A stretch of 42,445 nucleotides of DNA from an uncultured bacterium (GTDB lineage: Bacteria > Armatimonadota > HRBIN16). Positions 17,253 to 41,411 of the stretch are shown piece by piece (positions within the stretch are counted from its first letter, which is position 1; each line of letters starts with the position of its first letter). Below the pieces are notes generated by a model. It was not told the origin of the DNA. It worked only from the letters and a program-made list of their open reading frames with translations, and searched no databases. Position numbers and translations under genes: made by a program. The stretch lies in assembly GCA_937132045.1 (NCBI GenBank), contig CAKZNX010000069.1, forward strand, positions 1 to 42,445, in the 5' to 3' direction.

Positions 17253-18208
17253 TTCAGCGGCGGCAACGCGCTTGCTTCGTCCAGTATCGCTTTCTCCTCC
17301 GGCGGTAACAGCCCGCTCCAGTTGTTCAGGATCAGGTTCAGCTGCTCCATGTTACGTGCGCCGATGATGGCGCTGGTCACCGCCGGGTGGCTTAAGGTCC
17401 ACGCGATGGCGGTCTGGACAAGCGGGCGGTCAAACTGTTTCAGTACCTCGACAATGCGCTGTGCCCTTTCAATGTTATGCGGTTTGGCGCGTCGTTCCAA
17501 AAACCACTGGTTCTCCGCGGCGCGAGTGCCCGGTGGAGGAGGCTCGCCGGGACGATACTTGCCGGTGAGGATGCCTCCCGCCAGCGGACTGTACACCATC
17601 ACACCCACACCCTCCGCCCGACACAGGGGCAGAATCTCCATCTCCACCACGCGGTCGATCAGGTTGTAGCGGGGCTGGATGCTGTCGAAGCGCGACCAGC
17701 CCTGTTTATCGCTGATCCACAGCGCCTTGCACAGCTGCCATGCGCTGAAGTTGGAACAGCCGATGTAGCGCACTTTGCCCTGACGGACAAGGTCGTTGAG
17801 GGCGCTCAGTGTTTCTTCCAGAGGGGTGGTCTCGTCCCAGGAATGCACCTGATACAGGTCGATATGGTCGGTTTGCAGGCGACGCAGACTGCGCTCCGCC
17901 TCGCGCAGGATGTGGTAGCGTGACAGCCCCTCGTTGTTCGGTCCCTCGCCGACGGGCGCCCGCACCTTGGTGGCGATGACCACGTTGTCTCGGTGTGCCT
18001 TCAGTGCTTTGCCGAGTATTTCTTCCGAGCGTCCGCGGGTATACACGTTCGCCGTGTCGAAGAAGTTGATGCCCGCCTCCAGACACCGCTCCACCATGGC
18101 GATGGAGGTTACCTCATCCGCCTCTCCGCCAAAGGTCATGCAGCCCATGCACAGTTCCGACACCCACAGTCCCGTTCTGCCCAGACGTTGATAACGCACT
18201 TGTGGCAC
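17249..18208 (-). CDS. Aldo/keto reductase
   Basis: GINFFDTANVY, IATK, DLYQVH, YIGCSNF, YSPLAGG. Confidence 0.93.
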   Translation of the reverse strand: MPQVRYQRLGRTGLWVSELCMGCMTFGGEADEVTSIAMVERCLEAGINFFDTANVYTRGRSEEILGKALKAHRDNVVIATKVRAPVGEGPNNEGLSRYHILREAERSLRRLQTDHIDLYQVHSWDETTPLEETLSALNDLVRQGKVRYIGCSNFSAWQLCKALWISDKQGWSRFDSIQPRYNLIDRVVEMEILPLCRAEGVGVMVYSPLAGGILTGKYRPGEPPPPGTRAAENQWFLERRAKPHNIERAQRIVEVLKQFDRPLVQTAIAWTLSHPAVTSAIIGARNMEQLNLILNNWSGLLPPEEKAILDEASALPPLN

Positions 18209-18228
18209 CTCGTTGTTTCCTGATCTTT

Positions 18229-18792
18229 TCAGGGTCTTCTAGCCCGCCCTGGTATTGGACGGGAAGAGTAGGCAGGCTGGCTCCAATCTGGGTCGTCATC
18301 GAAGAGTGACGGCGTGGTTGCTCTTCGCAGTTCGGATTCGGTCTGACAAGTCCCATCCCTCCGAATATGAACCGCATCGATACCATAGTGGTCAAATAGA
18401 TGTCTGGCTATCAGCAGACGACGGTGGCAATGCTTAGGGTCTTCTTCGGCACACATCAGGGCAACTCGTCTCTCTTGACCGAGCACGTCCAGAACTTTCT
18501 GGATACCTTGCTTGAACACGCTGGTATTGCTGAAGGCATCATAGTTAGCGTAACCGCGCTGGTCGTAAAGGTCATCCCCATCCAGTCTGCCTCCCAGAAG
18601 ATTACCCATGTAGCAGTAAATGATGCCTGTCGCACCCAGAGCCGACTCGAGGCTTGCCCTGTCAAACTGAGTATGCCAGCGCGATGTTGGAACAGACCGA
18701 ACGTCAATGAGCGTGTCCACTGTGTGCATGCGGAGCAACTCGATGAATCGCTCAATCTGGTGGTTGGAGTGCCCTATTGTAAACAGTGGCAT
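18229..18792 (-). CDS. DUF488 family protein (HisSer-type N-terminus)
   Basis: FTIGHS, IDVRSxP, LGGR, ALMCAE-x4-CHR motifs. GGGGAG SD. Confidence 0.88.
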   Translation of the reverse strand: MPLFTIGHSNHQIERFIELLRMHTVDTLIDVRSVPTSRWHTQFDRASLESALGATGIIYCYMGNLLGGRLDGDDLYDQRGYANYDAFSNTSVFKQGIQKVLDVLGQERRVALMCAEEDPKHCHRRLLIARHLFDHYGIDAVHIRRDGTCQTESELRRATTPSLFDDDPDWSQPAYSSRPIPGRARRP

Positions 18793-18829
18793 GTGTGCTC
18801 TCCCCTGTGTTGACGTGCTCTACTACCAG

Positions 18830-18838
18830 ATTATAGCA
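18830..18838 (-). promoter_or_regulatory. Extended -10 promoter inside the DUF488 cassette
   Basis: Minus strand TGcTATAAT, a perfect extended -10, in the 52-nt gap before the 18229-18792 gene. Confidence 0.55.
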
Positions 18839-18844
18839 TGTTTC

Positions 18845-19561
18845 TTATGGCGCAGCATCAAGCCCTCGTTCATCTTTGCCGTTCTGGGTTAAGGCTGGTT
18901 TGCCATAGTATTGGGACACCTGAAGGTAGCATACCGGTTCGACACCCTGAGTCCTGCTCCACCAGCGGGCTAATGACAGACGAAGCAGACCGCCAGCCGG
19001 AATCACGTCAACCTCCAGCGGGGCTTCGGCAATGTAGGGTACAACAATGTTGCGGTATTCTGAACGCAGGCGGATTTTGCCTTCGGTAGTGCGCCAGACT
19101 TCCAGTTCGTGCGGTGGTATCCAGAAACAGGTGCTAAAGCTCGGAACACCTGTTCGCCGTTCAATAAATCGTGAACCGGTTTCTGAACTCACCTGCAAGA
19201 GTCCCTCAAACACGGTGTCAATGCTACCCCTATACAGGGGCACAACAGAGTTTTGTGTGATAATCTGCATCAGCCTATCGGCTATGGGTGGTGCTAGCGT
19301 GCCTGCGAGGCGCAGATGTTGAACACGGCAGTCTTCCGTGTGAGGGGGGCGTATGTTTGGGCTGGGAAGATATTCCAGCTCCAATATCTGCCCGACCTTG
19401 AAGGCAAATTCCTCGGCGTGATAAAAGGCTCCGTCCGCCTTGTGAAGGCGGAGGTTGCGTATTGGCGTGTAGCCAGTTGATGTTTGTTCCAGCTCAAGTG
19501 CCCCCACGCACTTTCGCCCTTCGCGCATCCGGGTTACTGCTACGATAGCAGCAAGACTCAT
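18845..19561 (-). CDS. Dual-OB-fold (DuOB-like) domain protein
   Basis: TRM-x4-CVG, xxRL, PPHTED, LRLSLAR, CYLQV pattern. ATG 19561 overlaps the upstream TGA (ATGA coupling). Confidence 0.7.
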   Translation of the reverse strand: MSLAAIVAVTRMREGRKCVGALELEQTSTGYTPIRNLRLHKADGAFYHAEEFAFKVGQILELEYLPSPNIRPPHTEDCRVQHLRLAGTLAPPIADRLMQIITQNSVVPLYRGSIDTVFEGLLQVSSETGSRFIERRTGVPSFSTCFWIPPHELEVWRTTEGKIRLRSEYRNIVVPYIAEAPLEVDVIPAGGLLRLSLARWWSRTQGVEPVCYLQVSQYYGKPALTQNGKDERGLDAAP

Positions 19562-20061
19562 GGGCGCAAATGTACGACCTCCAGTGCCAGCTTCTGCGAG
19601 AGAAAGTCCGCGAGAATAGACCGGTGGCACGCCTCTGGTTCGCGCTCCACGCACAGTAACGCAACCACGCTTGCTCTCGGATGAATACTATCGAGAAACG
19701 AAGCGTCAGAGGCGCTATGCTGTATCTGCTGCGTGTAGACTTCGACGAATTCGGGAGATAGATGCGTTCTGTTTCGCTTGCGAATCTTGCCATCCTTGTC
19801 CTTTTGCTTTTGTATGAGACGAATTTCCTGGGTCGGTGCCAGTTGCTTGAGATGGATATACTCTATTCCGTTTTGATGCAAAAGGTCGCTAAGCGCCTTA
19901 GCATTGGCGAAGCGATAGGAGCTTCCGCGAACACCTCTGCGCTGCCTCACGTCCACAACCACTTCCACTTGATGCTCCCTGAGGTCCGCGACAAAACGCT
20001 CTTCAGTCCACCCGTAAACGCCTATCGTGACGATTCGCTTCAAGGACTGACAATATACCAA
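19558..20061 (-). CDS. DUF488 family protein (second subtype)
   Basis: VTIGVYG, VDVR, YIHLKQLAP, LLCVE-x4-CHR. TTG start with AAGGAGG SD upstream. Confidence 0.85.
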   Translation of the reverse strand: MVYCQSLKRIVTIGVYGWTEERFVADLREHQVEVVVDVRQRRGVRGSSYRFANAKALSDLLHQNGIEYIHLKQLAPTQEIRLIQKQKDKDGKIRKRNRTHLSPEFVEVYTQQIQHSASDASFLDSIHPRASVVALLCVEREPEACHRSILADFLSQKLALEVVHLRP

Positions 20062-20096
20062 CCTCCACGACCTCCTTTGTCATGCCATTTCTGCGC

Positions 20097-21401
20097 TCAG
20101 CTTACCTTGCCCGGCGCATTGAAACGGCGCGCCGCCTCGTCCAGCACCAGCACCCAGTCTCCCCCGTCGTCTGCGGGTGGAGGAAGAAACTCCTGAACCC
20201 CGCGCGTGGCGAATGTACCGATACGCCGTGCCTTGCCGCTGCGCGGGTCAAACCACCACGCTACCGCCTGCCGTCCTGCTACCCTGCTCAGGTGCAACTG
20301 TACCGGCTTTACGCGTGGCACGTACACCATCACGTAGCTTCCATCGTCTGACCGGGTCGCTGAGATGTGTTCGCCACCCTCTCCCGCTTCGCAGGCGAGG
20401 ATACTCTGGTCGGGGACACGGCGGAGAAACGGCCGCGACAAGAGCAGCCGTCGCACGAAGGGCACCTGTGTGGCGCCGGGCAGTTTCAGCGACTCGTACC
20501 AGGGCTGGCGGGCGTGAATAACCGGCGCACGCCCCGGCGCCCACATCTGCCAGATGTTGTTACAGCCGTAGGTGTGTCCGTGCGCTCCGGCAAACAGCGC
20601 CCAGTAGGCGAACTTGCGCACATCGTACGCCTGCAGATAACCGTTCTTCGGGTCAAAATCCGACGGGATGTCTTCGTATCCGGGTTCCCCGTCCATGCAG
20701 GGCTTCGCTGGCGTTCGGGCATAGTCGGACGCAATGCGACGCCAATTGTCACGGTTTGCGCTGTGCCCGGACTGCAGCATGTTGAAGTCCAGCCAGTCGT
20801 CGTTGTGGAAGAACTCCGCGCTGGAGCGCCCACCCCAGGGATGATAGGTGATGAGCTGGCTGCGCCCAACCTGCGAACGAATGCCCTGCGCCATCGCGCG
20901 GATGATGGCGTAGTGTTCGTCGGTCTCGGGGCAGCGGTCGCCGCCCAGGATCCAGATAATGTTGCGCTGACGGTATCGGTGGGCAATCCATGCGCCATAC
21001 GCGCGGGCGTTTTCAGGGTTGAAGATGCTGGGACCCACGCCCCATTTGGGATGCCACTTGTCGCCCCAGGTGGGCAGCATTCCGATGAACAATCCCAGCT
21101 GGTTTGCCTTCTCCACCAGAAAGTCTACATGCTTCCAGTATTCCTCGTTCGGCTTTGTCGGGTCGTTGTTGACCAGAGGAGTGTGTCCGTAGGGGTTAGG
21201 GGTGTTCAGTCCGTCCAGCTCGGCAAGCGCCACTGCCTGAATCACGGTGAATCCCTTGGCAGCACGGTCGCGCAGGTACCTCTCCCCCTCTTCGCGGTTC
21301 AATCGGTGGAAAAGTTCCCAGGCGGTATCGCCCATGAAGAAGAAGGGTTGCCCGTCATCCCGTATCAGGAACCGCCGGTTATCACTGATTGCCAAACCCA
21401 T
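20097..21401 (-). CDS. DUF4038 / GH140 (apiosidase-like) glycoside hydrolase with C-terminal putative collagen-binding domain
   Basis: PFFFMGDTAWEL, LPTWG, WILGGD, MLQSGH, DGEPGYE, GHTYG, WFDPRSG, DWVLVL. Confidence 0.85.
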   Translation of the reverse strand: MGLAISDNRRFLIRDDGQPFFFMGDTAWELFHRLNREEGERYLRDRAAKGFTVIQAVALAELDGLNTPNPYGHTPLVNNDPTKPNEEYWKHVDFLVEKANQLGLFIGMLPTWGDKWHPKWGVGPSIFNPENARAYGAWIAHRYRQRNIIWILGGDRCPETDEHYAIIRAMAQGIRSQVGRSQLITYHPWGGRSSAEFFHNDDWLDFNMLQSGHSANRDNWRRIASDYARTPAKPCMDGEPGYEDIPSDFDPKNGYLQAYDVRKFAYWALFAGAHGHTYGCNNIWQMWAPGRAPVIHARQPWYESLKLPGATQVPFVRRLLLSRPFLRRVPDQSILACEAGEGGEHISATRSDDGSYVMVYVPRVKPVQLHLSRVAGRQAVAWWFDPRSGKARRIGTFATRGVQEFLPPPADDGGDWVLVLDEAARRFNAPGKVS

Positions 21402-24345: not shown

Positions 24346-24944
24346 GGTGATCCCCCCAAAAGCACTTCCAGACGTTGTTTAAGCAATCGGCGGGCGCGGA
24401 ACAGACGCAGCTTCACGCTTCCGACACTGCATCCCAGCGCCTTTGCCATTTCCGCATAGTCCATCCCTTCGATATCTCGCAACACAATCACCGCACGATG
24501 GTGTGGAGGCAGGGCGTCGATGGCTTTGCGCACCGTTTCCCGCAGCTCGTTGAGTTCGGCGGCGGTGTGGGGATCGATGTCCGCGTGAGAACCGCCAACG
24601 TCCCAGTCCAGCGATACCTCAGGATGCGCGTGCTTGCGCTTCACGTGGTCTATTGCCAGGTGCACGCCGATGCGGATCAGCCAAGTGCGCAGTTGCGCCT
24701 CTCCGCGGAAGCTGTCCAGCGCACGGTATGCACGCAGAAACGCCTCCTGAGTGAGGTCTTCAGCATCCTGGGTATTGCCCACCACGCCGAGTATACTGCG
24801 AAACACCGCAGAGCGATGCTGCTCCCACAGTGTGCCGAAAGCCTCCATATCGCCCGATCGGCAGCGTTCAATCAGCTGTCGCTCGCTGTCCTGTCGGGGG
24901 TGCTCTCCAGTTGCCACACGCCACTCCCAAACTTGCGCATCCAT
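24342..24944 (-). CDS. ECF-family RNA polymerase sigma factor
   Basis: DAEDLTQEAFLRA, TWLIRI, LRDIEGMDYAEMA, GSVKLRLFRAR. Confidence 0.93.
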   Translation of the reverse strand: MDAQVWEWRVATGEHPRQDSERQLIERCRSGDMEAFGTLWEQHRSAVFRSILGVVGNTQDAEDLTQEAFLRAYRALDSFRGEAQLRTWLIRIGVHLAIDHVKRKHAHPEVSLDWDVGGSHADIDPHTAAELNELRETVRKAIDALPPHHRAVIVLRDIEGMDYAEMAKALGCSVGSVKLRLFRARRLLKQRLEVLLGGSP

Positions 24945-25096
24945 CGCGTCGCTCCTTCATCGATTCGGTGCGAGCACCTTAGGCTCCCCCTCGCGCCAAC
25001 CCACACTGCGGAGAGACAGCTGGTGCCCGCACCGTCGTCTGCTCTTGCTGGCGGGCGTGTATCCCTCCGCAAGTCCTCCGAACCACACCAACATAA

Positions 25097-25124
25097 TAGA
25101 CGATGCCTGTCCTTATCTGTTATC
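25097..25124 (-). promoter_or_regulatory. Putative autoregulatory ECF promoter (GATAAC-N16-CGTCTA)
   Basis: Minus strand AAC at -35 and CGT at -10 with a 16-nt spacer, the usual ECF architecture, about 150 nt upstream of the sigma ATG. Confidence 0.55.
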
Positions 25125-25133
25125 ATGGTGTAT

Positions 25134-25985
25134 ATGAGCCAGATCATCACCCTGCTAACCGACTTCGGCACAGAAGACACCTACGTGGGTGTGATGAAGG
25201 GTGTTATCGCCTCCATCTGCCCTTCGGCTCTGGTGGTTGACCTCACGCATGAAGTGCCCCCGCAGGACGTTGCTACAGGAGCGTTTCTGCTGGACGTTTC
25301 GGTGGACTACTTCCCTCAGGACACGGTGCATGTGGCGGTGGTCGATCCCGGCGTGGGCACCGCGCGCAAACCCGTAGCCATCCGGACGGAACAGGCGTAT
25401 TACGTTGGTCCGGATAACGGCATTTTCACGCTGGTGCTGCAGCGCCACCGGATGCGCAGGGCGGTGTGTCTGGATAATCCACAGTATCACCTGCCTGAAA
25501 AGAGCACGACGTTTCACGGCAGGGACGTATTCGCTCCGGTGGCGGCGCATCTTGCCTGCGGGGTGCCCTTCGAGCAGCTTGGTACGCCTGTTTCCAGTCT
25601 CCAGCGTCTGCCACTGCCGCGCGTGCGGGTAGACTGGCATGGCATTCGCGCCACTGTGGTGCATATCGACCGCTTCGGCAACGCCATCACCAACCTGACA
25701 CGCTCGGATTACGAGGCGTGGTGCCGCCGCTGGGACGTGAAAGAGAATCTGGCTCGGGTGGAGTGCGCAGGCGTTCGGCTATCTATATGCCAGACGTATG
25801 GCGAGGTGCCCGACGGACAACCGCTGGCGCTGTTCGGCAGCAGTAAAAGGCTGGAAGTGGCGGTGAACAGGGGCAATGCAGCGCAGGTATTCCGGTTGAA
25901 ACGCGGCGACACTATCAGGGTACTGCGTCAGGAAACCGCCCCACCGCCGCGCCCGCAGAGGTCGCTGAATCTGGGTTTGAAGTGA
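25134..25985 (+). CDS. SAM-dependent chlorinase/fluorinase family (DUF62, SAM hydroxide adenosyltransferase)
   Basis: ITLLTDFG, VVDPGVGT, GPDNG, TFHGRDVFAP, IDRFGNAITN, LEVAVNRG. Confidence 0.92.
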   Translation: MSQIITLLTDFGTEDTYVGVMKGVIASICPSALVVDLTHEVPPQDVATGAFLLDVSVDYFPQDTVHVAVVDPGVGTARKPVAIRTEQAYYVGPDNGIFTLVLQRHRMRRAVCLDNPQYHLPEKSTTFHGRDVFAPVAAHLACGVPFEQLGTPVSSLQRLPLPRVRVDWHGIRATVVHIDRFGNAITNLTRSDYEAWCRRWDVKENLARVECAGVRLSICQTYGEVPDGQPLALFGSSKRLEVAVNRGNAAQVFRLKRGDTIRVLRQETAPPPRPQRSLNLGLK

Positions 25986-26105
25986 ACAGAAGGAAACGCC
26001 CCCGCGATTGGCGCTGGCAGATGGCGTGCTGTCCCGGGCAGGAGAAAGGAGGGGCGCATCGCGAACAGGGAAAGCGTCCACCCAACTGTTCAACGGAGGA
26101 GGAGT

Positions 26106-27086
26106 ATGCATCGACTGGTTATCACCTTCACTCTGCTGGCAGGAGTGCTTTTGCTGTTCTCCGCCTGCGCGAAGCGTCAGGAGGCGTCGGGTCCTGCTCC
26201 GTCCGCGAAGCTGCGCATCGCGGTGGTGCCCAAGGGCACCGCACATTCGTTCTGGCTGACCGTGAAGGCGGGCGCGGAACAGGCAGGACAGGAAGAGGGC
26301 GTGCAGATTCTGTGGAAAGGTCCTGCGGAAGAGACCGACGTGGAGGGTCAGCAGCGCATTCTGGAGGACTTCATCAACCAGAAGGTCGACGCAATTGTGA
26401 TGGCGGCTTGTGACGCCGACGGAATGGTACCTATTGTCAAGCAGGCAATGGATGCCGGTATTCCGGTGATTACCATCGACTCGGGGGTGAATTCCGACCT
26501 TCCGCTCAGCTTCGTGGCAACCGACAATGTCGCCGCGGCGGCGAAGGCAGCGGAGGTGCTGTGCGAGCTGGTTGGTGGAAAGGGCAAGGTCGGTATGGTC
26601 CCCTTCATCAAAGGGGCTGCCTCCTCGGAACAGCGCGAGCAGGGCTTCCGCGAGGGCATCAAAAACTGCACCGGCGTGACGCTGGGACCGGTTCTCTATT
26701 CGCAAAGCCAGGTGGAGCGAGCGATGCAGGTGACCGAGGACATGCTGACCGCCAATCCCGACCTGGTGGGCATCTTTGCCGCGAACGAACCGGGTGCAGT
26801 GGGCGCAGCGACAGTGCTGGAACAGCGCGAGCTGGCGGGCAAGGTGAAGCTGGTAGCCTTCGATGCGGCGCAGCCGGAAATCGACGCCCTCAGGCGAGGC
26901 ACCATTCAGGCGCTCATCGTGCAGAACCCCTTCAAGATGGGCTATGAGGGAGTGAAGCTGGCCGTGCAGGCAGTGAAAGGCGATCGCGCCAGCATCCCGA
27001 AGCGCGTGGATACCGGCGTAACGGTGGTCACGCGGGACAATCTGGACACCCCTGAAGTGCAGGAGCTCCTGAAAGAGCGCAGATAG
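26106..27086 (+). CDS. Sugar ABC transporter substrate-binding lipoprotein (RbsB/periplasmic binding protein type I)
   Basis: Lipobox FSAC; VVPKG..FW, VATDN, GIFAANE, VAFD, VQNPFKMGY. Confidence 0.9.
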   Translation: MHRLVITFTLLAGVLLLFSACAKRQEASGPAPSAKLRIAVVPKGTAHSFWLTVKAGAEQAGQEEGVQILWKGPAEETDVEGQQRILEDFINQKVDAIVMAACDADGMVPIVKQAMDAGIPVITIDSGVNSDLPLSFVATDNVAAAAKAAEVLCELVGGKGKVGMVPFIKGAASSEQREQGFREGIKNCTGVTLGPVLYSQSQVERAMQVTEDMLTANPDLVGIFAANEPGAVGAATVLEQRELAGKVKLVAFDAAQPEIDALRRGTIQALIVQNPFKMGYEGVKLAVQAVKGDRASIPKRVDTGVTVVTRDNLDTPEVQELLKERR

Positions 27087-27095
27087 AGCAGCCGG

Positions 27096-28304
27096 ATGGT
27101 CAGCGTTGAACGGATAGAGGAGGCACGTCGGGCGGCACAGGGAATCGTTCAGCATACGCCCCTGTTCCCTGCCCGCATGTTGAGTGAGCTGGCGGGGGTG
27201 CCGGTGTGGCTGAAGGTGGAGAGTTTCCAGCGCACCGGCTCCTTCAAGATACGGGGCGCCTATGAGTTCCTGCGCCGCCTGCCGGAGTCGGTGCGGGCGC
27301 GCGGGGTGGTCACCGGTTCGGCGGGAAACCATGCGCAGGGCCTGGCGCTCGCTGCGAAGATGTTCGGCGTGCCAGCTACCATCTTCATGCCGGTGTTTGG
27401 TTCCATCGCCAAGATGCAGGCGGCAAAGGGGTATGGAGCGCAGGTCATTCTGCAGGGCGAGGGCTTTGCCGAGGCGGTGGAGGCGGCACAACGCTATGCG
27501 CAGGAGACGGGCGCGACCTACGTCCCCGCCTACGACCACGACGACATCATCTGCGGGCAGGGCACCTGCGGGCTGGAGATTCTGGAAGACCTGCCGGAGG
27601 TGGAGCAGATTGTGGTGCCGGTGGGTGGCGGAGGGCTTTTCTCCGGCATCGCGGCGGCGGTGAAGGCGCGCAAGCCCGATGTGTCGCTGATCGGAGTTCA
27701 ATCCGAGGGAGCGGATACGGCAGTGCGCTCATGGCGGGAGGGCAGACTGGTGAGCGATCCGGTGGTTCGTTACACTCTTGCCGACGGCATCGCGGTGAAA
27801 ACGCCAACCGAGCGAACTTTCGAGTACATCCGGCACTATGCTGACGAAATGGTAACGGTGGACGACCGCAGCATCGCGCGAGCAGTACTCTGGCTGATGG
27901 AGCGCAAGAAAGTGGTGGTAGAGGGCGCTGGAGCCGTCGGGGTGGCGGCGGTACAGAGCGGACGGGTGCGCCTGCACGGGACAACGGTGATCGTGGTCTC
28001 GGGCGGAAACATCGACACCAAGACCCTGTCCGACCTGATCGAACGGGAGATGCTGCAAGCCAGCCGGTACTACCAGTTCTTCACTGCCGTGCCCGATCGC
28101 CCGGGCGGTCTGGCGGCGCTGTTGCAGCTGGTGGCTCAGGCGCAGGGCAACATTATGACGGTCCACCACAACAGGATACACCCCTCCGTGCCGCACGGAT
28201 GGACGGGGGTAGAGCTGCTGCTGGAGGTGCGCGACGCCGAACACATCGCACAGATACACAGTGTCCTGCGCGCCGCGGGCTACGAGGTGAGGGTACTGGC
28301 ATGA
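27096..28304 (+). CDS. ilvA: Threonine ammonia-lyase with a single C-terminal ACT domain
   Basis: GSFKIRGA (PLP Lys), SAGNHAQG, PVGGGGL, SGGNID, PDRPGGL ACT domain. Confidence 0.9.
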   Translation: MVSVERIEEARRAAQGIVQHTPLFPARMLSELAGVPVWLKVESFQRTGSFKIRGAYEFLRRLPESVRARGVVTGSAGNHAQGLALAAKMFGVPATIFMPVFGSIAKMQAAKGYGAQVILQGEGFAEAVEAAQRYAQETGATYVPAYDHDDIICGQGTCGLEILEDLPEVEQIVVPVGGGGLFSGIAAAVKARKPDVSLIGVQSEGADTAVRSWREGRLVSDPVVRYTLADGIAVKTPTERTFEYIRHYADEMVTVDDRSIARAVLWLMERKKVVVEGAGAVGVAAVQSGRVRLHGTTVIVVSGGNIDTKTLSDLIEREMLQASRYYQFFTAVPDRPGGLAALLQLVAQAQGNIMTVHHNRIHPSVPHGWTGVELLLEVRDAEHIAQIHSVLRAAGYEVRVLA

Positions 28305-29101: not shown

Positions 29102-31141
29102 CTACCGCGTCGCCTGCAGTCGTATTTGAGCGGCTCGCAGATTGACCTCTCGCATCCGGCGAAGCATCTCCCATTTGGGACGGTCGCAGAAATCCACCAG
29201 CCCGAAGGCGAAGTGCTCGCCGATTACCAGCATGTTGCCCCTGCCGGGACCGCGCCCTGTGAGTGGCTGGTCGCGATACTGGAACCACATCACCCCCACG
29301 CAGGCAGGATGACGTGCGGCGTCGGTCACCCAGCGACGATACAGTTCGCCCGATTCCGCCTCGTCCTTCGCCCAGGTGGGATATCTGCCGTAGGCACGTG
29401 CGCCGTCGTACCACGCGGGAAACGAGAACTCCCCGCACAGAACGGGCTTGTCGATGCGCTCGATGAGCCGTTTCATCCACTCGTCGGCGAAGTCGGGGGC
29501 GTAGCGGTCGTAGCCCAGCACGTCGCAATGGCGTGCACTCAGCGTCCAGTCTTCTTCGTTTTCCCACCAGCCCGGCACGATCCAGAAGCCGAAGTACAGA
29601 TGGTTGGGGTCGAGCTCCTTGACCGTGCGGTAGACCCAGCTGTAGTAGCGTTCGGCATAGTAGCGACGGAGTGGTTCGATATCCTCGTCGCGAGGCGTAA
29701 GAGTCGCGCTATACAGGGCGCTTCGGTCACGCGCGTCCACCCTCCACGCTCGCGCCATTTCGGAAATCTGGTTTCTGTACAGGTTTTCCAATGCATAGTC
29801 TATCAGGGCGCGTTTGCCGGCGGGCGCACCCGGCAGGCGAAGTATCTGTGCAATCTCGTCGCGAGTGAAAATCTCGTCATACTCGTTGCCGAGCGACCAT
29901 CCCAGCACCCAGGGGCTGTTGCGGAACGGCTCGATTTGCCGGCGCAGGTGTTCACGCAGCTGTGCCTGTACCGCCGGGTCAAAGATGTCGGGGTGGCGTA
30001 CCAGGTTGGGGATTTCCCATCGTCCGAGCACCGGCGCGAAGGGAAAGCCGTCAATCCGGTCCCATTTGCCGCCGCCAGAAAACCCCCATGTAAGCAACCT
30101 TTGCTTTGCAAGTTGTATACTTTGTGCCTTCCAGTCCTCGCCGAAGCGGCGCATCAGGTTCACTGCGTGCAGGCACACGTAGTCGGTATTGGCACGTTCG
30201 CCCCACACGTCCTTGCGCCATACCTCAGCGGTCCTACCCTCTCTGGGGGGAAGCCACTCGAACACGGCTTCGCGTTCCGAGACAGGGGTCATTTCCCATG
30301 TCAATGCGGGCACGGAGCATACGCCCACGTAGAAACACGGGTTGCCCTCCGGGGTGATGAGCCACCAGTTTCTTCCCCTGCGCACCACGCGGTAGAAACC
30401 GGTAGCCTGCTCGCGCCAGCCTGCCTTCAGGTAGCCACCGTAGGGGTCAAAGTCGCGCGGAAGCCCCCACTGCGCCAGAGTGCGTTTCTCCTCCTCGAGA
30501 CTGCGTCGCAGGTCGTCGTCGGTTTGCACCCTGTTCGGGGAGCGTACATAGCGACATTGCCCGAAGCGGTCGATGTAGGGCTGGTAGCGCTTCCAGTCGG
30601 GCATGGGCACCAAACGGAAATTAGCCTCGATGTTCAGGGGAAGGTCCACCGCGAATGGAGTCCGCCGGATGGGTTTGCCCCACAGGGTTTCTATATTGAA
30701 CATTCGCACAGGTTCGGGAATGTCTTCGCGCGTCTCCAGTGAGAACTCCTGCTGGCTTCGCCTGCCCATGGTGATGCTTACGCGGTGGCGAGTCGGGCGA
30801 TAGTTCGTCTGTCCGCTGGCGAATGAGGGCACAGTTGCCACTTCCAGGGAGCCTCCGTGAGGAGCAAACCTGCCCTCGCTCTTGCCCAGAAGCGTGTTGT
30901 TCAGCCACAGTTCCGCTCCCGATGCGGTGATGCGTGCCACGAGGCGATACGGCTTGTTCCACTCCCATTTCGGTGTGGCGACGATGAAACGCCACGAGTT
31001 CCCGTCGGCAACGCCCAGCGCAATCTTTAGCGTCTCCAGAGGGCATACAGGGTCAGGCGTCTCGTTCTCGAAGCTCAGGTAAAAGCCTTTTCTGCCCTGC
31101 CAGTCATGCTGGGAAGCGAAGTAGTAGCGGTGAGCAGCCAT
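29102..31141 (-). CDS. GH50 (beta-agarase-like) glycoside hydrolase with N-terminal beta-sandwich
   Basis: ATGFYRV..WWLITPEG, GWSLGNE, LCGEFSF, WFQYRDQPLTGR...FGLVD..D.P, resembling GH50 clan-A motifs. AAGGGAG SD before ATG 31141. Confidence 0.72.
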   Translation of the reverse strand: MAAHRYYFASQHDWQGRKGFYLSFENETPDPVCPLETLKIALGVADGNSWRFIVATPKWEWNKPYRLVARITASGAELWLNNTLLGKSEGRFAPHGGSLEVATVPSFASGQTNYRPTRHRVSITMGRRSQQEFSLETREDIPEPVRMFNIETLWGKPIRRTPFAVDLPLNIEANFRLVPMPDWKRYQPYIDRFGQCRYVRSPNRVQTDDDLRRSLEEEKRTLAQWGLPRDFDPYGGYLKAGWREQATGFYRVVRRGRNWWLITPEGNPCFYVGVCSVPALTWEMTPVSEREAVFEWLPPREGRTAEVWRKDVWGERANTDYVCLHAVNLMRRFGEDWKAQSIQLAKQRLLTWGFSGGGKWDRIDGFPFAPVLGRWEIPNLVRHPDIFDPAVQAQLREHLRRQIEPFRNSPWVLGWSLGNEYDEIFTRDEIAQILRLPGAPAGKRALIDYALENLYRNQISEMARAWRVDARDRSALYSATLTPRDEDIEPLRRYYAERYYSWVYRTVKELDPNHLYFGFWIVPGWWENEEDWTLSARHCDVLGYDRYAPDFADEWMKRLIERIDKPVLCGEFSFPAWYDGARAYGRYPTWAKDEAESGELYRRWVTDAARHPACVGVMWFQYRDQPLTGRGPGRGNMLVIGEHFAFGLVDFCDRPKWEMLRRMREVNLRAAQIRLQATR

Positions 31142-31201
31142 CTCCGTTCTCCCTTCAGGTAATTCTACGGGCTGAGTTAGATGCAGTCGCGTCGCTTTCC
31201 T

Positions 31202-31209
31202 GCCGATAA
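31202..31209 (+). promoter_or_regulatory. sigma28 (FliA) -10 element
   Basis: Perfect GCCGATAA, 23 nt before a gene leading into fliD-fliS. The -35 match is weak. Confidence 0.6.
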
Positions 31210-31232
31210 TAAGCGGTGAGGAGGTTGGTAGC

Positions 31233-31658
31233 ATGGGGTATCCGGTGCAGCGTATTACCATCACGGGCATCGACATAGACAGCGTGGAGAAAGATCCCTC
31301 GTTCGCCACAGCGTACGCCTTCACCATGCAATTGTCGGAGGCGCCCAACGAGGCGTGGACGCTCGCCTTCAGCGAGGAATGGAAAGCAATCATCGCCGCA
31401 CGCAAACTGCAGCTCGATGTCGTGGGCGACCGTCTTCGCTGTATTGTGTCGGAGGGCGATGACCTGCGCCGGGTGGTGCGGTTCGCTTACGAGTTCGTGG
31501 AGCGCATCAACCAGCGGGTTCCGCACTACTGCGCCCAGCTGGAGCAACGTGACCGGCGCGAGCAGGCGTACCGCCGCGAGGTGGAGGAGCATATCGCATA
31601 CCTGCGTGCACGCTTGCAGGCACTTGTTGAGGAGTTTGAGGGCAACAAGGCGGCGTAG
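31233..31658 (+). CDS. Hypothetical protein with C-terminal coiled coil, first gene of the fliD unit
   Basis: Strong GAGGAGG SD, plausible composition, no FlaG motif. Confidence 0.7.
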   Translation: MGYPVQRITITGIDIDSVEKDPSFATAYAFTMQLSEAPNEAWTLAFSEEWKAIIAARKLQLDVVGDRLRCIVSEGDDLRRVVRFAYEFVERINQRVPHYCAQLEQRDRREQAYRREVEEHIAYLRARLQALVEEFEGNKAA

Positions 31659-36029: not shown

Positions 36030-36171
36030 CGGGCGCACTCGCAGAAGAGAACGTCGTTCCGAGCGGTAAGCGATGCTGCGATGGGTCGCCACCGCTCGGA
36101 GTGACCGGTGAATTGAGCCTGTGTTGTTGTTTCTGACACGCACGCATCGCAGGGGTTGTGTGGAGGGCGGA

Positions 36172-39165
36172 ATGGGTCGCAGGGGCTTCGCGCTTCTTGG
36201 TGTGCTTCTCATCATGGCGTGTACACCACTTGTGGAGGGTCAGATGTCCGCAGATGTCCCCGAGAACGTCTACCGCGCCGAGCTGGTCAGCTATCCCGGC
36301 GCGTACGGTTTCGAAATCGGCAAGTCGGCAATCATCCTCGTGAGCGATATGGAGCTTGAAGCGCTATCCGACCCTGATCGCAAGCTCAACCTCACACTCA
36401 CCTTCGAACCGCAGGAAATGAGCCTGCGCGAGGTCTGCGAGCGAGCGAAACAGTCTGGGCACCGCACAATGATTATTGCCTTCGACCACTTTTTCAGCCA
36501 GTACCGCCCTGGTCAGGCAGGACCGCGTCGCTACACTCCGGACACCGACGGCTACATCGAGCGCCTTGCCCCGATCGCCAGATTTGCGCAGGGATATGGT
36601 CTGGGGTTGGAACTCAGCCTACTGTCGCCACTGGAAATCGGTCCCGGTTATCGCGCCAAAACCGGCGAGAGCGGGATGTGGATGCAGTATCGCAAGGGCC
36701 TGCGCGACCCGCAGACGGGCGCGTTCAGCGTGCAGATGTGGCGGCACAGGCGCTGGGCGAACAACAAGGGCGTGGTGGAGCTCGAGGACGCGGGGGTACG
36801 GGTGTTCGCCTTCCGGGAGCAGTCCATCGCAGGCACGCCGTACCGTGTTGTCAATCCCGATAGCATCGTGGAAATCACCGAAGCGGCGAAGGTAGAGGTC
36901 TTCCCCGGAGCGCAGGCTCGCGCGGGCGACTTCGCTGCAGTGCGCATCCGCGTGTACGGAACAGGACGAACCGATGTCGGTGCGCTCAACCGCGTGCTGG
37001 TGGTGCAGATGTACCGGTCGCCCGAGATGGACTACTTCAGTCCCAGGGCGCTTCCCTTCCTGAAGGAGCTGATCGACAAATACGCCGACGCCGGTATCAG
37101 GCTGAACGCCCTCTATTCTGACGAGATGCACATCCAGCAGGACTGGGCGTACTTCAACCACCACGATCACGGCGATTTCGCCATGCGCTATGTGACCGAC
37201 AGCCTGGCGCACCGGTACGCGCAGCTCTACGGCGACCGCTACCGCGACTTGGCGAAGTATCTGCTCTATTTCGTGTATGCGCAGGAGGACTTCGCGTCCG
37301 ACCTCACAGCGCGGCAGCCGATCATGCATGTGTTTGGCGCTTCACCGGAAGCGATACGCGAGACGGCTCTGTTCCGCTCGCGATATTACCGCCTTCTGCA
37401 GGATGGGGTAGTGGAACTGTTCACCGCAGCCAAACGCTACGCCGAGCAGAAGATGGGCTACAAGCTGGAGTCGCGTGCTCATGCCACATGGGCGGAAAGT
37501 CCCACGGTTGACTACTGGAACACCGGGCAGGAGAACATGAACCGGCACAAGTACGAGTACACGTCCAATTTCGTCTGGTCGGTGACGGTGCATCAGGCGG
37601 CGTCTGCCTGTCATGACTATTTCCGCTGGGGCGACTTTCTGACGGGCAACGGCAACGACCACGCGGAAGGTGGCTGGCTCGACCGCAACTACTACGGCTT
37701 GGCGCTTGGTTGTTCCACCGGTATCCTGAACGAGGTGCCGTACTCCTACGCGGCGCACTGGGGCTCTCCCGCCGAGATTTCCCAGCGACACTGGTGGCTG
37801 CAGTGTGCCTTTGGCACGGCGGGGGCATACCACGGTCGGGTACAGGGGATGCAACATCGCGCGGTGGAGGTGCTGATGCTGTATCCGCTGGATCTGGTGG
37901 CGGTAGAAGAGCGCTTCGGCAGCTGGATGACGCAGTACGGCTACACCAACTATATCACGCAGTGGAAACTGCTGGAACAGGGCAGGCTCGAGGGCGGCGC
38001 GATACGCATTGGGGACTACCGCTTCACGACACTCGTGGCGCTTTTCGAGCCTTTCCCCGCGCGTGCCATGCTGGAGCTGATGAAGCGCATGGTGGAAGCA
38101 GGGGGCAAGGTGGTGTGGTCAGGACCGCCGCCCGTGCTGACCGCCGAGGGAGAGCCGGCGCAGCCGCTGTGGCAGGAGATATTCGGCGTGCGTTACGCAC
38201 CTGGGCAGATGGAAGGGATTGCCGCGCCGGGAAGGGTGGTGACTTTCAGCGGCACTCTGGGCGGAGTGACGCCCCAGACCATTCTCACCGACTTCCTCGT
38301 GGACCACATCTACCCGGTGACGCCCGAAACGAGCACCGAAGCAGTGGCTCAGGTGGGCGAAGCAGTGGTGGGCACGGTGCGCCGTACTCCGAATGGCGGT
38401 ATCGCTGTCTTCCTTGGCTATCGCCCGCGCGACGATCAGTCTCGCAGTCTGGGGTACGATGCGCGCAACTGGTTTGACGTGCTGAGCGCACTGGGGGCAT
38501 ATCCGCCCACCGGTAAGTTCGCTGACCTCAACGACAACACGGAGCATCTCTCGCGGACGGGCGAGTATCTGGTCACCCGCTTCCCCAACGGCGCGATATC
38601 GATGGCGCCGCACATACGCGGTATCGTGGAAGACTGGGGCGGCGGCTTCGCCCGCAACCGGCAAGAGGACGAGAAGGTGCTTCAGAGGCTGAAGCTGCCC
38701 TCCGACCGGGTGCAGGTGAAAGACCTCGCCGTAAAAGGGCATCGGGTAAGTGTGGACGCGCGCGGTGCAGTGAGCTTTCGTGTGAATGAAAAAGGCGACA
38801 TGGTAGCCTTTTGCGGTTTCGATTGCACAGAGATTGAGATAGACGGCAGACGCCATCGGTTTGCCGAGCGGATTGGCGAGCATCCTGTGGCGCTGGTGGT
38901 GTGGGCGCCTGTTGCTAAGGAGCGCAGGGTAGCGGGCGGTGCGGTGATGGAGATACAGGTGCACGGAGCGGCGCGGCTCGTACTGCCCGAGAACCTGTTT
39001 CCGGCAGAGTTTCAGATGTTTCTCGAAGGTGCAACGCCGGGTAGCAGGGGGCGCGAGGTCCCGTTCCGCCGAGAGGGGGGCAACGTGCTGGTGGAGGCGC
39101 TTCCCGAGCTGTCTGGCAGGTGGATATACGTAGTGCCGGCTGGTCAGGCAACTATTGACAACTGA
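36172..39165 (+). CDS. Large secreted hypothetical protein, possibly a TIM-barrel glycoside hydrolase
   Basis: Signal peptide, ~997 aa, YSDEMH motif, aromatic-rich core and a trimerisation-like domain (GGKVVW). Confidence 0.6.
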   Translation: MGRRGFALLGVLLIMACTPLVEGQMSADVPENVYRAELVSYPGAYGFEIGKSAIILVSDMELEALSDPDRKLNLTLTFEPQEMSLREVCERAKQSGHRTMIIAFDHFFSQYRPGQAGPRRYTPDTDGYIERLAPIARFAQGYGLGLELSLLSPLEIGPGYRAKTGESGMWMQYRKGLRDPQTGAFSVQMWRHRRWANNKGVVELEDAGVRVFAFREQSIAGTPYRVVNPDSIVEITEAAKVEVFPGAQARAGDFAAVRIRVYGTGRTDVGALNRVLVVQMYRSPEMDYFSPRALPFLKELIDKYADAGIRLNALYSDEMHIQQDWAYFNHHDHGDFAMRYVTDSLAHRYAQLYGDRYRDLAKYLLYFVYAQEDFASDLTARQPIMHVFGASPEAIRETALFRSRYYRLLQDGVVELFTAAKRYAEQKMGYKLESRAHATWAESPTVDYWNTGQENMNRHKYEYTSNFVWSVTVHQAASACHDYFRWGDFLTGNGNDHAEGGWLDRNYYGLALGCSTGILNEVPYSYAAHWGSPAEISQRHWWLQCAFGTAGAYHGRVQGMQHRAVEVLMLYPLDLVAVEERFGSWMTQYGYTNYITQWKLLEQGRLEGGAIRIGDYRFTTLVALFEPFPARAMLELMKRMVEAGGKVVWSGPPPVLTAEGEPAQPLWQEIFGVRYAPGQMEGIAAPGRVVTFSGTLGGVTPQTILTDFLVDHIYPVTPETSTEAVAQVGEAVVGTVRRTPNGGIAVFLGYRPRDDQSRSLGYDARNWFDVLSALGAYPPTGKFADLNDNTEHLSRTGEYLVTRFPNGAISMAPHIRGIVEDWGGGFARNRQEDEKVLQRLKLPSDRVQVKDLAVKGHRVSVDARGAVSFRVNEKGDMVAFCGFDCTEIEIDGRRHRFAERIGEHPVALVVWAPVAKERRVAGGAVMEIQVHGAARLVLPENLFPAEFQMFLEGATPGSRGREVPFRREGGNVLVEALPELSGRWIYVVPAGQATIDN

Positions 39166-41408: not shown

Positions 41409-41411
41409 GCG

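Follow-up and report, generated by a model that had tools for sequence, protein, structure and literature searches.

The window, the whole 42,445-nucleotide stretch of DNA analyzed here from an uncultured bacterium of the Armatimonadota, carries at positions 18229–20061 a cassette of three intact genes, all on the minus strand, that encode DUF488, DuOB and DUF488 proteins. The cassette is a rearranged version of a three-gene unit that recurs across many phyla, and its composition and its distribution among relatives support horizontal acquisition. The reading that we favor, with a confidence that falls a little short of an even balance, is that this permuted, horizontally acquired module would carry out accessory processing of single-stranded DNA ends or gaps.

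Layout and surroundings of the cassette

The features discussed below are listed by their positions in the window.

Gene A, 19558–20061, minus strand: 167 aa, short DUF488, predicted p2-class ortholog
Gene B, 18845–19561, minus strand: 238 aa from the ATG at 19561, DuOB
Gene C, 18229–18792, minus strand: 187 aa, long DUF488, predicted p1-class ortholog
B–C spacer, 18793–18844, minus strand: 52 nt, with an extended −10-like element, TGCTATAAT
Disordered C-terminal tail of C, 18232–18312, minus strand: residues 161–187, an apparently diverged form of the two-part p1 tail
Low-coordinate insert junction, 18209–18228, no strand: between the start of an aldo/keto reductase (AKR) gene and the stop of C
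High-coordinate insert junction, 20062–20096, no strand: 35 nt from the stop of an apiosidase gene to the start of A

The boundaries given for the cassette in the original prediction were all borne out, as was the coupling of its first two genes: the minus strand reads ATGA at 19561–19558, where the stop codon of A overlaps the start codon of B. Gene A begins with a TTG codon 9 nt after the sequence AAGGAGG, and this ribosome binding site lies within the 35-nt gap that separates A from the apiosidase gene. That gap is too short to hold a promoter as well, and transcription of A and B may therefore be read-through from the apiosidase gene.

The cassette has a GC fraction of 0.535, whereas the genome averages 0.611 (z = −4.06); this places it within the lowest 0.32% of 9,373 genome windows of the same size; this dip is far beyond chance. 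Third codon positions follow the same pattern, with GC3 values of 0.54–0.59 in the cassette genes versus 0.69–0.76 in the three flanking genes. A lower GC content than that of the flanks had been proposed from hand counts on two lines of sequence, and those counts (26/60 at 19801–19860 and 40/60 at 20461–20520) are exact.

Pfam identifies the flanking genes as an AKR, an apiosidase-like glycoside hydrolase and a second AKR. The remaining genes of the window, which encode 31 other proteins, are housekeeping genes of a core region, and no defense or mobile genes were found among them, so that a defense-island setting is not what surrounds this cassette. An RtcB gene present in the window lies 13 kb from the cassette and is unlinked to it.

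A clean insertion between two core genes

DuOB was not found in any of 12 congeneric species genomes or in any of 5 other genomes of the same family, and of 300 other genomes in the phylum only 4 contain full-length relatives. The empty site is kept in two congeners (G010 and G002), in which the AKR and apiosidase genes are directly adjacent and 67–98 nt apart. Neither terminal repeats nor a target-site duplication were found at the edges of the insert. The cassette is a clean insertion between two core genes, and its absence from all 12 congeners, the two empty sites and the deviation in GC content support its horizontal acquisition, as had been proposed together with the presence/absence comparison that we report here.

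The one syntenic relative that has the same gene order as the window, locus L097, differs from it more within the cassette (60–64% protein identity) than in the flanking proteins (73–85%). The reading frames of all three genes are intact in both despite this protein divergence of 36–40%. On a broader scale, the module is patchy and has been transferred across phyla.

A canonical DuOB protein (from L030), used as the single query and thus with limited sensitivity, matched none of 50,697 phage records and 1 of 72,556 plasmids. Three loci, all canonical, were recovered from a viral contig collection with profile patterns whose fixed form limits sensitivity. A first metagenome scan with B alone as query found nothing, and a second with a four-sequence alignment as query returned 3 loci. 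A search of sequencing runs listed one DNA run, containing 0.25 of the words and labelled as a hot springs metagenome, and no RNA run; this listing says nothing about habitat or expression.

Identity of the three proteins

Both outer genes encode proteins that match DUF488 (PF04343) well above its gathering cut-off of 22.2 bits (A, 73.1 bits, 4e-20; C, 84.6 bits, 1.1e-23). They part on the DUF488-N3a model (PF22751, cut-off 27 bits), which A passes at 35.8 bits and C does not reach at 24.9 bits; the same model is matched by 59 of 62 p2-class proteins (E<=1e-3) but by only 10 of 62 p1-class proteins. Profiles built for the two classes score A at 200.7 bits as p2 versus 45.2 bits as p1, and C at 158.4 bits as p1 versus 50.4 bits as p2. 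By these scores, A is the predicted ortholog of p2, the second gene of the canonical operon, and C that of p1, its first gene.

The cysteine motif reads CVEREPEACHR in A (residues 137–147) and CAEEDPKHCHR in C (residues 114–124). The original prediction had recognized an intact motif in both paralogs but gave its second interval as four residues; the correct form in both proteins is C-x-E-x5-C-H-R. None of its residues C, E, C, H and R varies in the alignments of 62 sequences made for each of the p1 and p2 classes, so that the motif is kept here and across both ortholog classes. A also contains an arginine-rich loop, RQRRGVRG.

B scores 23.2 bits (E 7.9e-5) against the DuOB model (PF22557), under the cut-off of 27 bits, and a family search of the window's own genome with that model misses it. 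PF22557 is carried by 12 of the 13 non-self homologs of B, with E-values down to 2e-73, and B aligns end to end with 72 relatives while keeping all 10 invariant columns of the family (C18, R38, P73-H74-x-E76, W147, R194, S196, L197 and S216). A DuOB profile found 996 cluster representatives; against PDB sequences it found nothing meaningful (best E 0.31).

The AF2 model of B (pLDDT 93.8) resembles OB folds in both halves: residues 1–106 match those of BRCA2, RPA, SSB, RecO and PriB (Z 5.7–6.8), and residues 106–236 match Stn1/Ten1 and the RPA core (Z 5.5–5.6), all modest values that lie below the structure-comparison tool's own caution line of 8. The best Foldseek matches are likewise DNA binders with tandem OB folds. 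RPA, Thermus/Deinococcus SSB, telomere-end binding proteins and HIN-200 domains, the closest structures overall, share with B a succession of two OB folds, yet at TM scores of only 0.25–0.30 and Z below 7, and are not known to share the invariant residues of DuOB. The model and the homologs that carry PF22557 agree with the earlier description of the middle protein, and B is, at these modest match scores, a predicted dual-OB (tandem OB-fold) protein.

The AF2 model of C (pLDDT 87.6, falling below 50 at residues 161–174) matches cysteine phosphatases and the N-domains of tetrapyrrole methylases at Z values of 8–10, including KAP (9.7), laforin (9.2) and a Sulfolobus PTP (8.9); Foldseek likewise matches it to cysteine-dependent phosphatases. 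Somewhat lower values were obtained with two PTP/DSP-fold polynucleotide phosphatases, the baculovirus RNA 5′-phosphatase (1yn9, Z 7.8) and PIR1 (4mbb, Z 7.0). These enzymes resemble C in its predicted fold and in an essential-looking Cys/Arg motif, but have a Cx5R P-loop in place of the DUF488 motif and no sequence-level relation to C at E below 0.1 (nothing meaningful among PDB sequences, best E 0.16). The likeness, as modeled, is one of fold only and does not imply a shared substrate.

Relation to described families

The module is already represented in Pfam (DuOB and DUF488-N3a) and in PADLOC (PDC-M45B/C) and is not a new kind of system; to present it as a novel candidate overstates what it is. 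DUF488/DuOB systems were reportedly defined by computation by Burroughs and Aravind in 2023 in NAR Genom Bioinform, where cysteine-dependent rhodanese-phosphatase-fold enzymes are said to be predicted to act in novel DNA-end processing in conflict systems. The anatomy of the window's cassette matches that reported prediction. The three protein families are those of the Pfam-defined systems, with A passing the N3a model; the window differs in that B and C both fall under their cut-offs and in its order p2–DuOB–p1. To our knowledge, no biochemical activity has been established for the large DUF488 family.

In PADLOC-DB v2.0.0, C matches PDC-M45B (8.1e-47) and A matches PDC-M45C (1.2e-14), as canonical p1 and p2 proteins also do, while the best PADLOC match of A is PDC-M19A (3.1e-16). 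For the third component, neither B nor any of 19 further DuOB proteins (0/14 and 0/5) gave a match to a PADLOC model. In NCBIfam, neither A, B and C nor a canonical DuOB is covered by a model. Our literature search on DUF488, DuOB and PDC-M45 found no experimental study of activity, binding or phenotype; the available text of a ParB-CTPase preprint and of a paper on Methanoperedens plasmids does no more than mention the DUF488 domain.

A trio conserved across phyla

The p1, p2 and DuOB genes occur together in 73 of 80 DuOB loci, which represent at least 11 phyla. A strict test for the same-strand order p1–p2–DuOB is passed by 71 of the 80, and L036 and L050 also hold all three genes. The co-conservation required by the original prediction is thus present, but its picture of two DUF488 genes flanking an OB gene, true in the window, is the exception elsewhere, where the usual order is long DUF488 (p1), short DUF488 (p2), DuOB. 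The window keeps the adjacency of the canonical operon and not its order; L097 has the same permutation, and in the sister loci L098 and L099 the p1 gene is divergent from p2–DuOB. One locus in a genome of the same phylum has the canonical order. The commonest spacing between p2 and DuOB is the 4-nt overlap also found in the window (17/71), followed by a 1-nt overlap (11/71). No further gene family recurs in more than 5 of the 80 loci. These counts show that the three genes are an obligate trio across many phyla and a self-contained unit.

The neighbors in 40 related loci, counted with no matched control, are of mobile or defense type in about 8, and the rest are housekeeping genes such as those for enolase, PheRS, Rho, SufB and FtsH. 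Locus L031 is embedded in a type I restriction-modification (R-M) system, between HsdS/REase-ARP and HsdR; L019, L046 and L043 adjoin integrase, Mob or IS91 genes; and L047, L027 and L048 adjoin AAA_15/21 or SocA genes. Four simple phylum-specific LexA-box patterns, which would miss weak or divergent boxes, matched nothing in the regions preceding p1 at 71 loci, and there is accordingly no sign of general SOS control.

The tail and putative promoter of gene C

A motif of the clamp-binding type is present in 62 of 71 canonical p1 tails, compared with a mean of 5.0 and a maximum of 12 in shuffled tails and with 1 of 71 p2 tails. SRKxY comes 5–8 residues after it in 63 of 71 p1 tails, against a shuffled mean of 0.33 and none of the 71 p2 tails. 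The tail of C (TPSLFDDDPDW...SSRPIP) fits neither motif as written, since the clamp-motif glutamine is missing and SSRPIP stands where SRKxY is expected. It aligns with the intermediate tails of L098 and L099 (LSMF/PSLF followed by TSRK/TSSK) and appears from this alignment to be a diverged or degenerate form of the two-part p1 tail. Clamp tethering may therefore not apply to the window's version.

The −10-like element in the B–C spacer is a consensus match only; a two-hexamer promoter scan did not recover it, and a promoter/terminator scan of the minus strand at 17900–20600 found nothing above shuffled expectation. The sequence TGCTATAATCT..GTAGTA is common to the window's spacer and the region upstream of the p1 gene in L097. 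In the permuted arrangement, the spacer probably holds a putative promoter of gene C's own.

Fusions of DuOB to helicases

Eight of the 80 DuOB genes, all in one clade, are long fusion ORFs, and RecQ helicase domains are present in all five of these that were scanned. We also scanned 26 unusually long relatives, chosen for their length out of the top 150 matches, and found five full RecQ fusions, three RecQ fragments and one fusion to a Pif1/RecD-like (SF1) helicase; the RecQ fusions carry RQC/HRDC domains. One locus has genes for a Prim-Pol and a P-loop kinase-like protein inserted within the operon. These DuOB–helicase fusions support the proposal that the module acts on nucleic acids. Further fusions of DuOB join it in one case to Hsp70-like ATPases and in another to a domain named in Pfam after 'TOTE conflict systems'.

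Chloroflexota operons of the form DUF488–DUF488–(DuOB-RecQ fusion) share their p1 and p2 genes and their DuOB domain with the window, but the window's DuOB stands alone and branches away from 24 of the 25 Chloroflexota rows. Within the window's phylum, genome G022 has p1, p2 and then a DuOB ORF of more than 700 aa. RQC/RecQ models gave no hit in the window's genome, which is 99% complete, so that this organism shows no evident helicase partner of the proposed kind.

A proposed role at DNA ends and gaps

In the scheme that we favor, DuOB would bind single-stranded DNA through its tandem OB folds, and the two cysteine-phosphatase-fold paralogs, probably as a pair, would act at a DNA end or gap, either taking off a terminal phosphate or phosphoester group or transferring it. 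The disordered p1 tail would, in most versions of the module, tether the complex to the beta sliding clamp, placing it at primer-template junctions, gaps or stalled forks, where it would work with RecQ-type unwinding, RecQ being fused to DuOB in one clade. In the window's organism it would provide an accessory DNA-gap or DNA-end processing function. A more specific version of this scheme, to which we give only tentative credence and which we would place on the doubtful side, describes the trio as an undescribed bacterial DNA end/gap machine, composed of a single-stranded DNA reader and a heteromeric phosphatase-fold pair, held at the replisome by its tail and coupled to RecQ, with a loosened clamp tether and a p1 gene under its own promoter in the window's clade.

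The same biochemistry could equally act against phage replication intermediates. A role in anti-phage defense of the PDC-M45 type is a serious rival, though one that we judge rather unlikely. In such a role, DuOB would detect the single-stranded DNA or the replication intermediates of a phage, and the two DUF488 proteins would then halt phage replication or set off abortive infection by modifying or blocking the ends of DNA or RNA. This reading draws on the PADLOC matches of C and A and on the criterion by which, in the available part of the source, PADLOC candidates were chosen, namely homologs embedded in BREX, DISARM and type I R-M systems (Payne et al. 2024, 10.1101/2024.01.29.577857), although the main text of that source contains no test of an M45/DUF488 system and none of the terms 'M45', 'PDC-M45' or 'DUF488'. 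Gene lists for P2 hotspots name 'DUF488 + hypothetical' 12 times (Rousset et al. 2022, supplement file 5). The locus within type I R-M, those near integrase, Mob, IS91, AAA_15/21 and SocA genes, the patchy transfer of the module across phyla and the faster divergence of the cassette proteins relative to their flanks also speak for defense. Against it, none of the DuOB proteins tried matched a PADLOC model, the neighbors in 40 loci are mostly housekeeping genes, the window is a core region with no defense or mobile genes, and the trio has no obvious toxic effector (nuclease, pore or NADase); a clamp tail and an ordinary RecQ architecture are moreover more typical of replication and repair clients. 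The transfer-prone spread, the R-M-embedded locus, the loci in mobilizable elements and the PADLOC listing fit conflict as well as they fit repair and count against a repair reading, and the Hsp70-like ATPase and TOTE-domain fusions also point to conflict.

It is improbable that the module is directed at RNA, with DuOB binding RNA and the DUF488 pair acting as RNA-end phosphatases that heal or remodel RNA termini. B does match the OB folds of aspartyl/asparaginyl-tRNA synthetases, RNase R and editosome proteins (Z 5.2–6.2), and the fold matches of C include RNA 5′-phosphatases (baculovirus BVP, PIR1 and a capping enzyme). The C-terminal domain of RapZ, which Burroughs and Aravind reportedly placed in the clade of DUF488 in 2023, binds a small RNA. 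All informative fusions and insertions are nevertheless DNA enzymes (RecQ with RQC/HRDC, the Pif1/RecD-like helicase and Prim-Pol), the motif found in p1 tails is of the DNA-clamp type, the 80 loci show no recurrent gene for an RNA ligase, cyclase or kinase beside the trio, and the window's own RtcB is distant and unlinked.

Reversal of an NAD- or ADP-ribose-linked nucleic-acid modification, a role like that of DarG, is very unlikely. DUF4326 and other rhodanese-phosphatase-fold domains adjoin ADP-ribose-processing domains in virus–host conflict systems, according to the available part of PMC9503650, but the association with DarT/DarG loci stated in the original prediction is not seen: DarT, Macro, NADAR, Nudix and ADP-ribosyltransferase genes are absent among 141 neighbor proteins of 40 loci and in the window, and none is recurrent in the 80 loci. 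We give equally little weight to the view that the cassette is inert cargo, which would be decaying and no longer functional in this bacterium, since the degenerate tail motifs of C, the divergence of the cassette beyond its flanks and the position of B under its Pfam cut-off are set against frames that stay intact in the window and L097, invariant residues retained in all three families, and conservation of both the translational coupling and the spacer element.

As a place to look for the biochemistry of DUF488, the trio is unusually well defined: a fixed set of three proteins, a predicted reader of single-stranded DNA, fusions to RecQ and SF1 helicases, and a replisome-type tail. The window's own value is smaller, as a clean and datable insertion of a horizontal module into a core locus. 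As a rearranged sub-clade, it marks the trio, the p2–DuOB coupling and the cysteine motifs as indispensable, and gene order and the exact tail motifs as dispensable. If DNA termini are indeed processed by this module at gaps or forks, it would constitute a new accessory DNA-repair or anti-phage pathway and provide the first function for the DUF488 clade.

Results

The cassette comprises three intact genes, all on the minus strand of the window, which encode a short DUF488 protein (A), a DuOB protein (B) and a long DUF488 protein (C):

19558-20061, minus strand: A, 167 aa; TTG start, 9 nt after AAGGAGG
18845-19561, minus strand: B, 238 aa; ATG start at 19561
18793-18844, minus strand: B-C spacer; perfect extended -10 (TGCTATAAT)
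18229-18792, minus strand: C, 187 aa

The ATGA overlap of A and B is present, as described, at 19561-19558. Both A and C match DUF488 in Pfam (4e-20 and 1.1e-23, respectively), and A additionally scores above the cut-off for the 'active DUF488-N3' subfamily (35.8 bits versus 27). The cysteine motif described for both proteins in the original prediction is real, but its spacing is C-x-E-x5-C-H-R, and not x4.

B scores only 23.2 bits against the Pfam DuOB model, under the cut-off of 27. The corresponding domain (PF22557) is nonetheless present in 12 of 13 non-self homologues, and B contains all ten invariant columns of a 73-sequence DuOB alignment. Its AlphaFold model (pLDDT 93.8) displays two OB-type barrels. 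Structural matches to the first (residues 1-106) are the OB folds with which BRCA2, RPA, SSB, RecO and PriB bind ssDNA (Z 5.7-6.8), and those to the second (residues 106-236) are Stn1/Ten1 and the RPA core (Z 5.5-5.6); these scores are modest, and the comparison tool cautions on Z < 8. Every one of the top Foldseek matches is a DNA-binding protein with tandem OB folds (HIN-200 domains, Thermus and Deinococcus SSB, telomere-end binding proteins and RPA), at TM scores of only 0.25-0.30. We therefore conclude that B is a genuine DuOB protein, and that the middle gene indeed encodes a dual-OB fold. The family also displays invariant or near-invariant cysteine, histidine and acidic residues (C18, H74, E76, D77 and C211 in B; alignment A3) that a plain OB-fold binder would not usually have and that may form a metal or catalytic site.

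One genome from each of 185,579 species was scanned by pattern, which returned 239 DuOB-encoding stretches; the best 80 of these were examined. By a strict test, 71 of these 80 loci carry, on the same strand, a long DUF488 gene (p1, ~183 aa), a short DUF488 gene (p2, ~160 aa) and a DuOB gene; all three are also found in L036 (with a split DuOB) and L050 (with an over-long ORF call), and the trio is thus co-conserved, as had been anticipated. A single DUF488 ORF is present in L027, L033, L067 and L082, and none lies inside 6 kb of the DuOB gene in L051; the L075 contig is 1.5 kb long and holds fragments, and L054 begins at the edge of its contig. Since no other gene family is common to more than five of the best 80 loci, the module is self-contained. 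The DuOB family is small: out of 1.84 billion proteins, clustering at 50% identity leaves 996 representatives with E<=1e-3, of which 483 have E<=1e-30.

The model of C (pLDDT 87.6) resembles cysteine-dependent phosphatases of the PTP/dual-specificity fold (KAP, Z 9.7; laforin, 9.2; Sulfolobus PTP, 8.9; PRL, 8.5), the polynucleotide 5'-phosphatases BVP (Z 7.8) and PIR1 (Z 7.0), and the tetrapyrrole methylase N-domain (Z 10.1). The phosphatase matches agree with the rhodanese-phosphatase superfamily, in which Burroughs and Aravind reportedly placed DUF488 in 2023. The C, E, C, H and R of the motif are invariant in each of the p1 and p2 classes, and both paralogues therefore look enzymatically active.

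The window departs from the canonical operon order, p1-p2-DuOB. A belongs to the p2 class (200.7 versus 45.2 bits for the p2 and p1 profiles) and C to the p1 class (158.4 versus 50.4 bits for p1 and p2), so that its order is p2-DuOB-p1. The coupling of p2 to DuOB is retained (the two genes overlap by 4 nt in 17 of the 71 canonical loci and by 1 nt in 11), whereas p1 has been relocated downstream, past the 52-nt spacer. The sequence TGCTATAATCT..GTAGTA is conserved in L097 (5724-5745), a syntenic relative, though the adjacent proteins are only ~64% identical; this spacer element is probably an internal promoter that arose from the operon rearrangement. In the sister loci L098 and L099, whose DuOB proteins are 41-42% identical, p1 is divergent and lies upstream of p2-DuOB. 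The DuOB tree joins the window with L097 (support 96) and then with L098 and L099 (support 99). The long branch that holds them sits between rows of Acidobacteriota, Planctomycetota, Deinococcota and Alphaproteobacteria, away from 24 of 25 Chloroflexota rows.

Phyla are mostly clustered in that tree (17 label changes versus 39.6 when shuffled), with several cross-phylum near-neighbours. Near-identical branches join Flavobacterium and Agrobacterium (L032 and L053) and Saprospiraceae and Limnohabitans (L007 and L015), and a Methylococcales branch (L008) lies inside Bacteroidota; the explanation is either that genes were recently transferred between phyla or that MAG contigs were binned wrongly. 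Adjoining a Chloroflexia DuOB locus (L040, 2043-4703) is a SpoVR-like gene with an intein that contains a LAGLIDADG homing-endonuclease domain.

A beta-clamp-binding-type motif (Q-x-x-[LMFI]-[FL], or the Bacteroidota form x-D-L-F-G) is found within the last 45 residues of 62 of 71 canonical p1 proteins, versus a mean of 5.0 (maximum 12) for shuffled tails and 1 of 71 for p2 tails. S-R-K-x-Y follows 5-8 residues past that motif in 63 of 71 p1 tails (shuffled mean 0.33; p2 tails 0 of 71). The tails counted here are the C-termini of the first DUF488 gene in loci from L003 to L082. The first part of this putative clamp-binding tail matches the consensus QL[SD]LF. The tail of C is disordered (pLDDT < 50 at residues 161-174), and the sequences of the window (TPSLFDDDPDW...SSRPIP) and L097 (TGSLFEDDPEW...SSRPIP) match neither p1 tail pattern as written. 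Those of L098 and L099 are intermediate (LSMF/PSLF ... TSRK/TSSK), and the window clade therefore appears to keep a diverged version.

Horizontal acquisition of the cassette, as originally proposed, is borne out by composition and by comparison with relatives. The earlier hand counts of GC were exact on recount. Cassette GC is 0.535 versus a genome mean of 0.611 (z = -4.06), which places it in the bottom 0.32% when the 3.53-Mb assembly is divided into 9,373 windows of that size; GC3 of its genes is 0.54-0.59 versus 0.69-0.76 for flanking genes, the lowest among credible genes of the window. Searches of 12 congeneric species genomes and five further genomes of the family detected no DuOB. Among 300 other genomes of the phylum, the family profile detected full-length relatives in only four (in nine more, the first OB alone was matched, weakly and in part). 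A whole-locus DNA search aligned the flanks with congeners at 76-84% identity and returned no match to the cassette. The gap between the aldo/keto reductase (AKR) and apiosidase genes is only 67-98 nt in the congeners G010 and G002, which represent the empty site, and this comparison proves insertion into a core locus. The remaining window genes include ordinary core functions (RtcB, the Pst/PhoU phosphate system, YggS, SepF, ProC, an HtrA-like protease, FliD, FabI and IF3), with no mobile or defence genes among them. No terminal repeats or target duplications were found at the insert edges.

L097, a metagenome contig, is syntenic with the window (apiosidase 85%, second AKR 76% and protease 73% identical) and carries its cassette in the same place and gene order, with all reading frames intact in both and cassette proteins only 60-64% identical. 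The shared site and order of these diverged cassettes show that the insertion is not very recent. Among congeners, the second AKR gene comes immediately after the first in G006 and G003, and other DNA replaces the apiosidase-like gene in G007, G005 and G008; because that gene is variable, the site is a small hotspot of gene turnover.

Four large window ORFs (585-1014 aa, genome-typical GC3) had no Pfam match at E<=1e-5:

25779-27701, minus strand: large ORF
29102-31405, minus strand: large ORF
36121-39165, plus strand: large ORF
40653-42410, minus strand: large ORF

A further ORF (24375-25985) contains a SAM hydroxide adenosyltransferase domain preceded by ~250 residues that lack assignment.

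Discussion

We tentatively favor an accessory replication or repair function in processing DNA ends or gaps, a reading that we place slightly short of an even chance. Pointing to repair are the clamp-type p1 tail, fusions to RecQ and other helicases, and a Prim-Pol insertion. Long DuOB ORFs (587-1054 aa) occur in 8 of the best 80 loci, in one Chloroflexota clade; four of five scanned encode a complete RecQ helicase (DEAD, Helicase_C, RecQ Zn-binding, RQC and HRDC) with DuOB at the N-terminus, and the fifth, which is shorter, only the helicase core. Among 26 longer-than-usual proteins, chosen by length from the top 150 DuOB representatives, were five full RecQ fusions, three RecQ fragments, one SF1 helicase of the Pif1/RecD-like type that carries a 'TBP-TOTE' domain, and two Hsp70-like ATPase fusions, the remainder being DuOB alone. 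In L007 (4635-5997; a Saprospiraceae MAG), P-loop kinase-like (AAA_18/AAA_33) and Prim-Pol genes lie between p2 and DuOB. Counting against repair, four simple patterns for LexA-type boxes gave no matches in 71 loci, and no RQC match was found in the window's genome.

Inserts of similar size to that of L007 are seen at the p2-DuOB junction in L015 and L059. Representatives P0044, P0080, P0054 and P0150 comprise the two Hsp70-like fusions, the SF1 helicase (its domain is named by Pfam for the 'TBP-TOTE conflict system') and a RecQ fusion with a C-terminal Siphovirus Gp157 domain.

That the cassette is an anti-phage defense system is to us the less likely reading, but a serious alternative. Two of its proteins match PADLOC candidates, C the model PDC-M45B (8.1e-47) and A the models PDC-M45C and PDC-M19A. 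Such candidates were selected on the grounds that their homologues occur inside BREX, DISARM or type I restriction-modification systems (Payne et al. 2024 preprint). Type I restriction-modification genes likewise surround L031; L019, L046 and L043 adjoin integrase, mobilisation or IS91 genes, and L047, L027 and L048 adjoin AAA_15/21 or SocA genes. In the supplementary file 5 lists of P2 hotspots, 'DUF488 + hypothetical' appears 12 times, the hypothetical partner being only a putative DuOB (Rousset et al. 2022). Other findings speak against defense or are neutral: the DuOB proteins tried matched no PADLOC model, phage and plasmid records seldom carry the module, and no toxic effector is evident in the trio. 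Most of the 141 neighbor proteins surveyed in 40 loci, with no matched control, are housekeeping, and a few have replication or repair roles (PriA, DnaG plus Pif1, AlkZ and nucleases). Repair and defense are compatible readings, since one chemistry could support either role.

Computational resources already describe this kind of module, Pfam with its DuOB and DUF488-N3a models and PADLOC with PDC-M45B/C; our literature search found no experimental study of it. To that record the window adds a rearranged sub-clade, in which the order is p2-DuOB-p1, the spacer is promoter-like and conserved, and the tail has diverged, together with a clean empty-site comparison for insertion of the module at a core locus.
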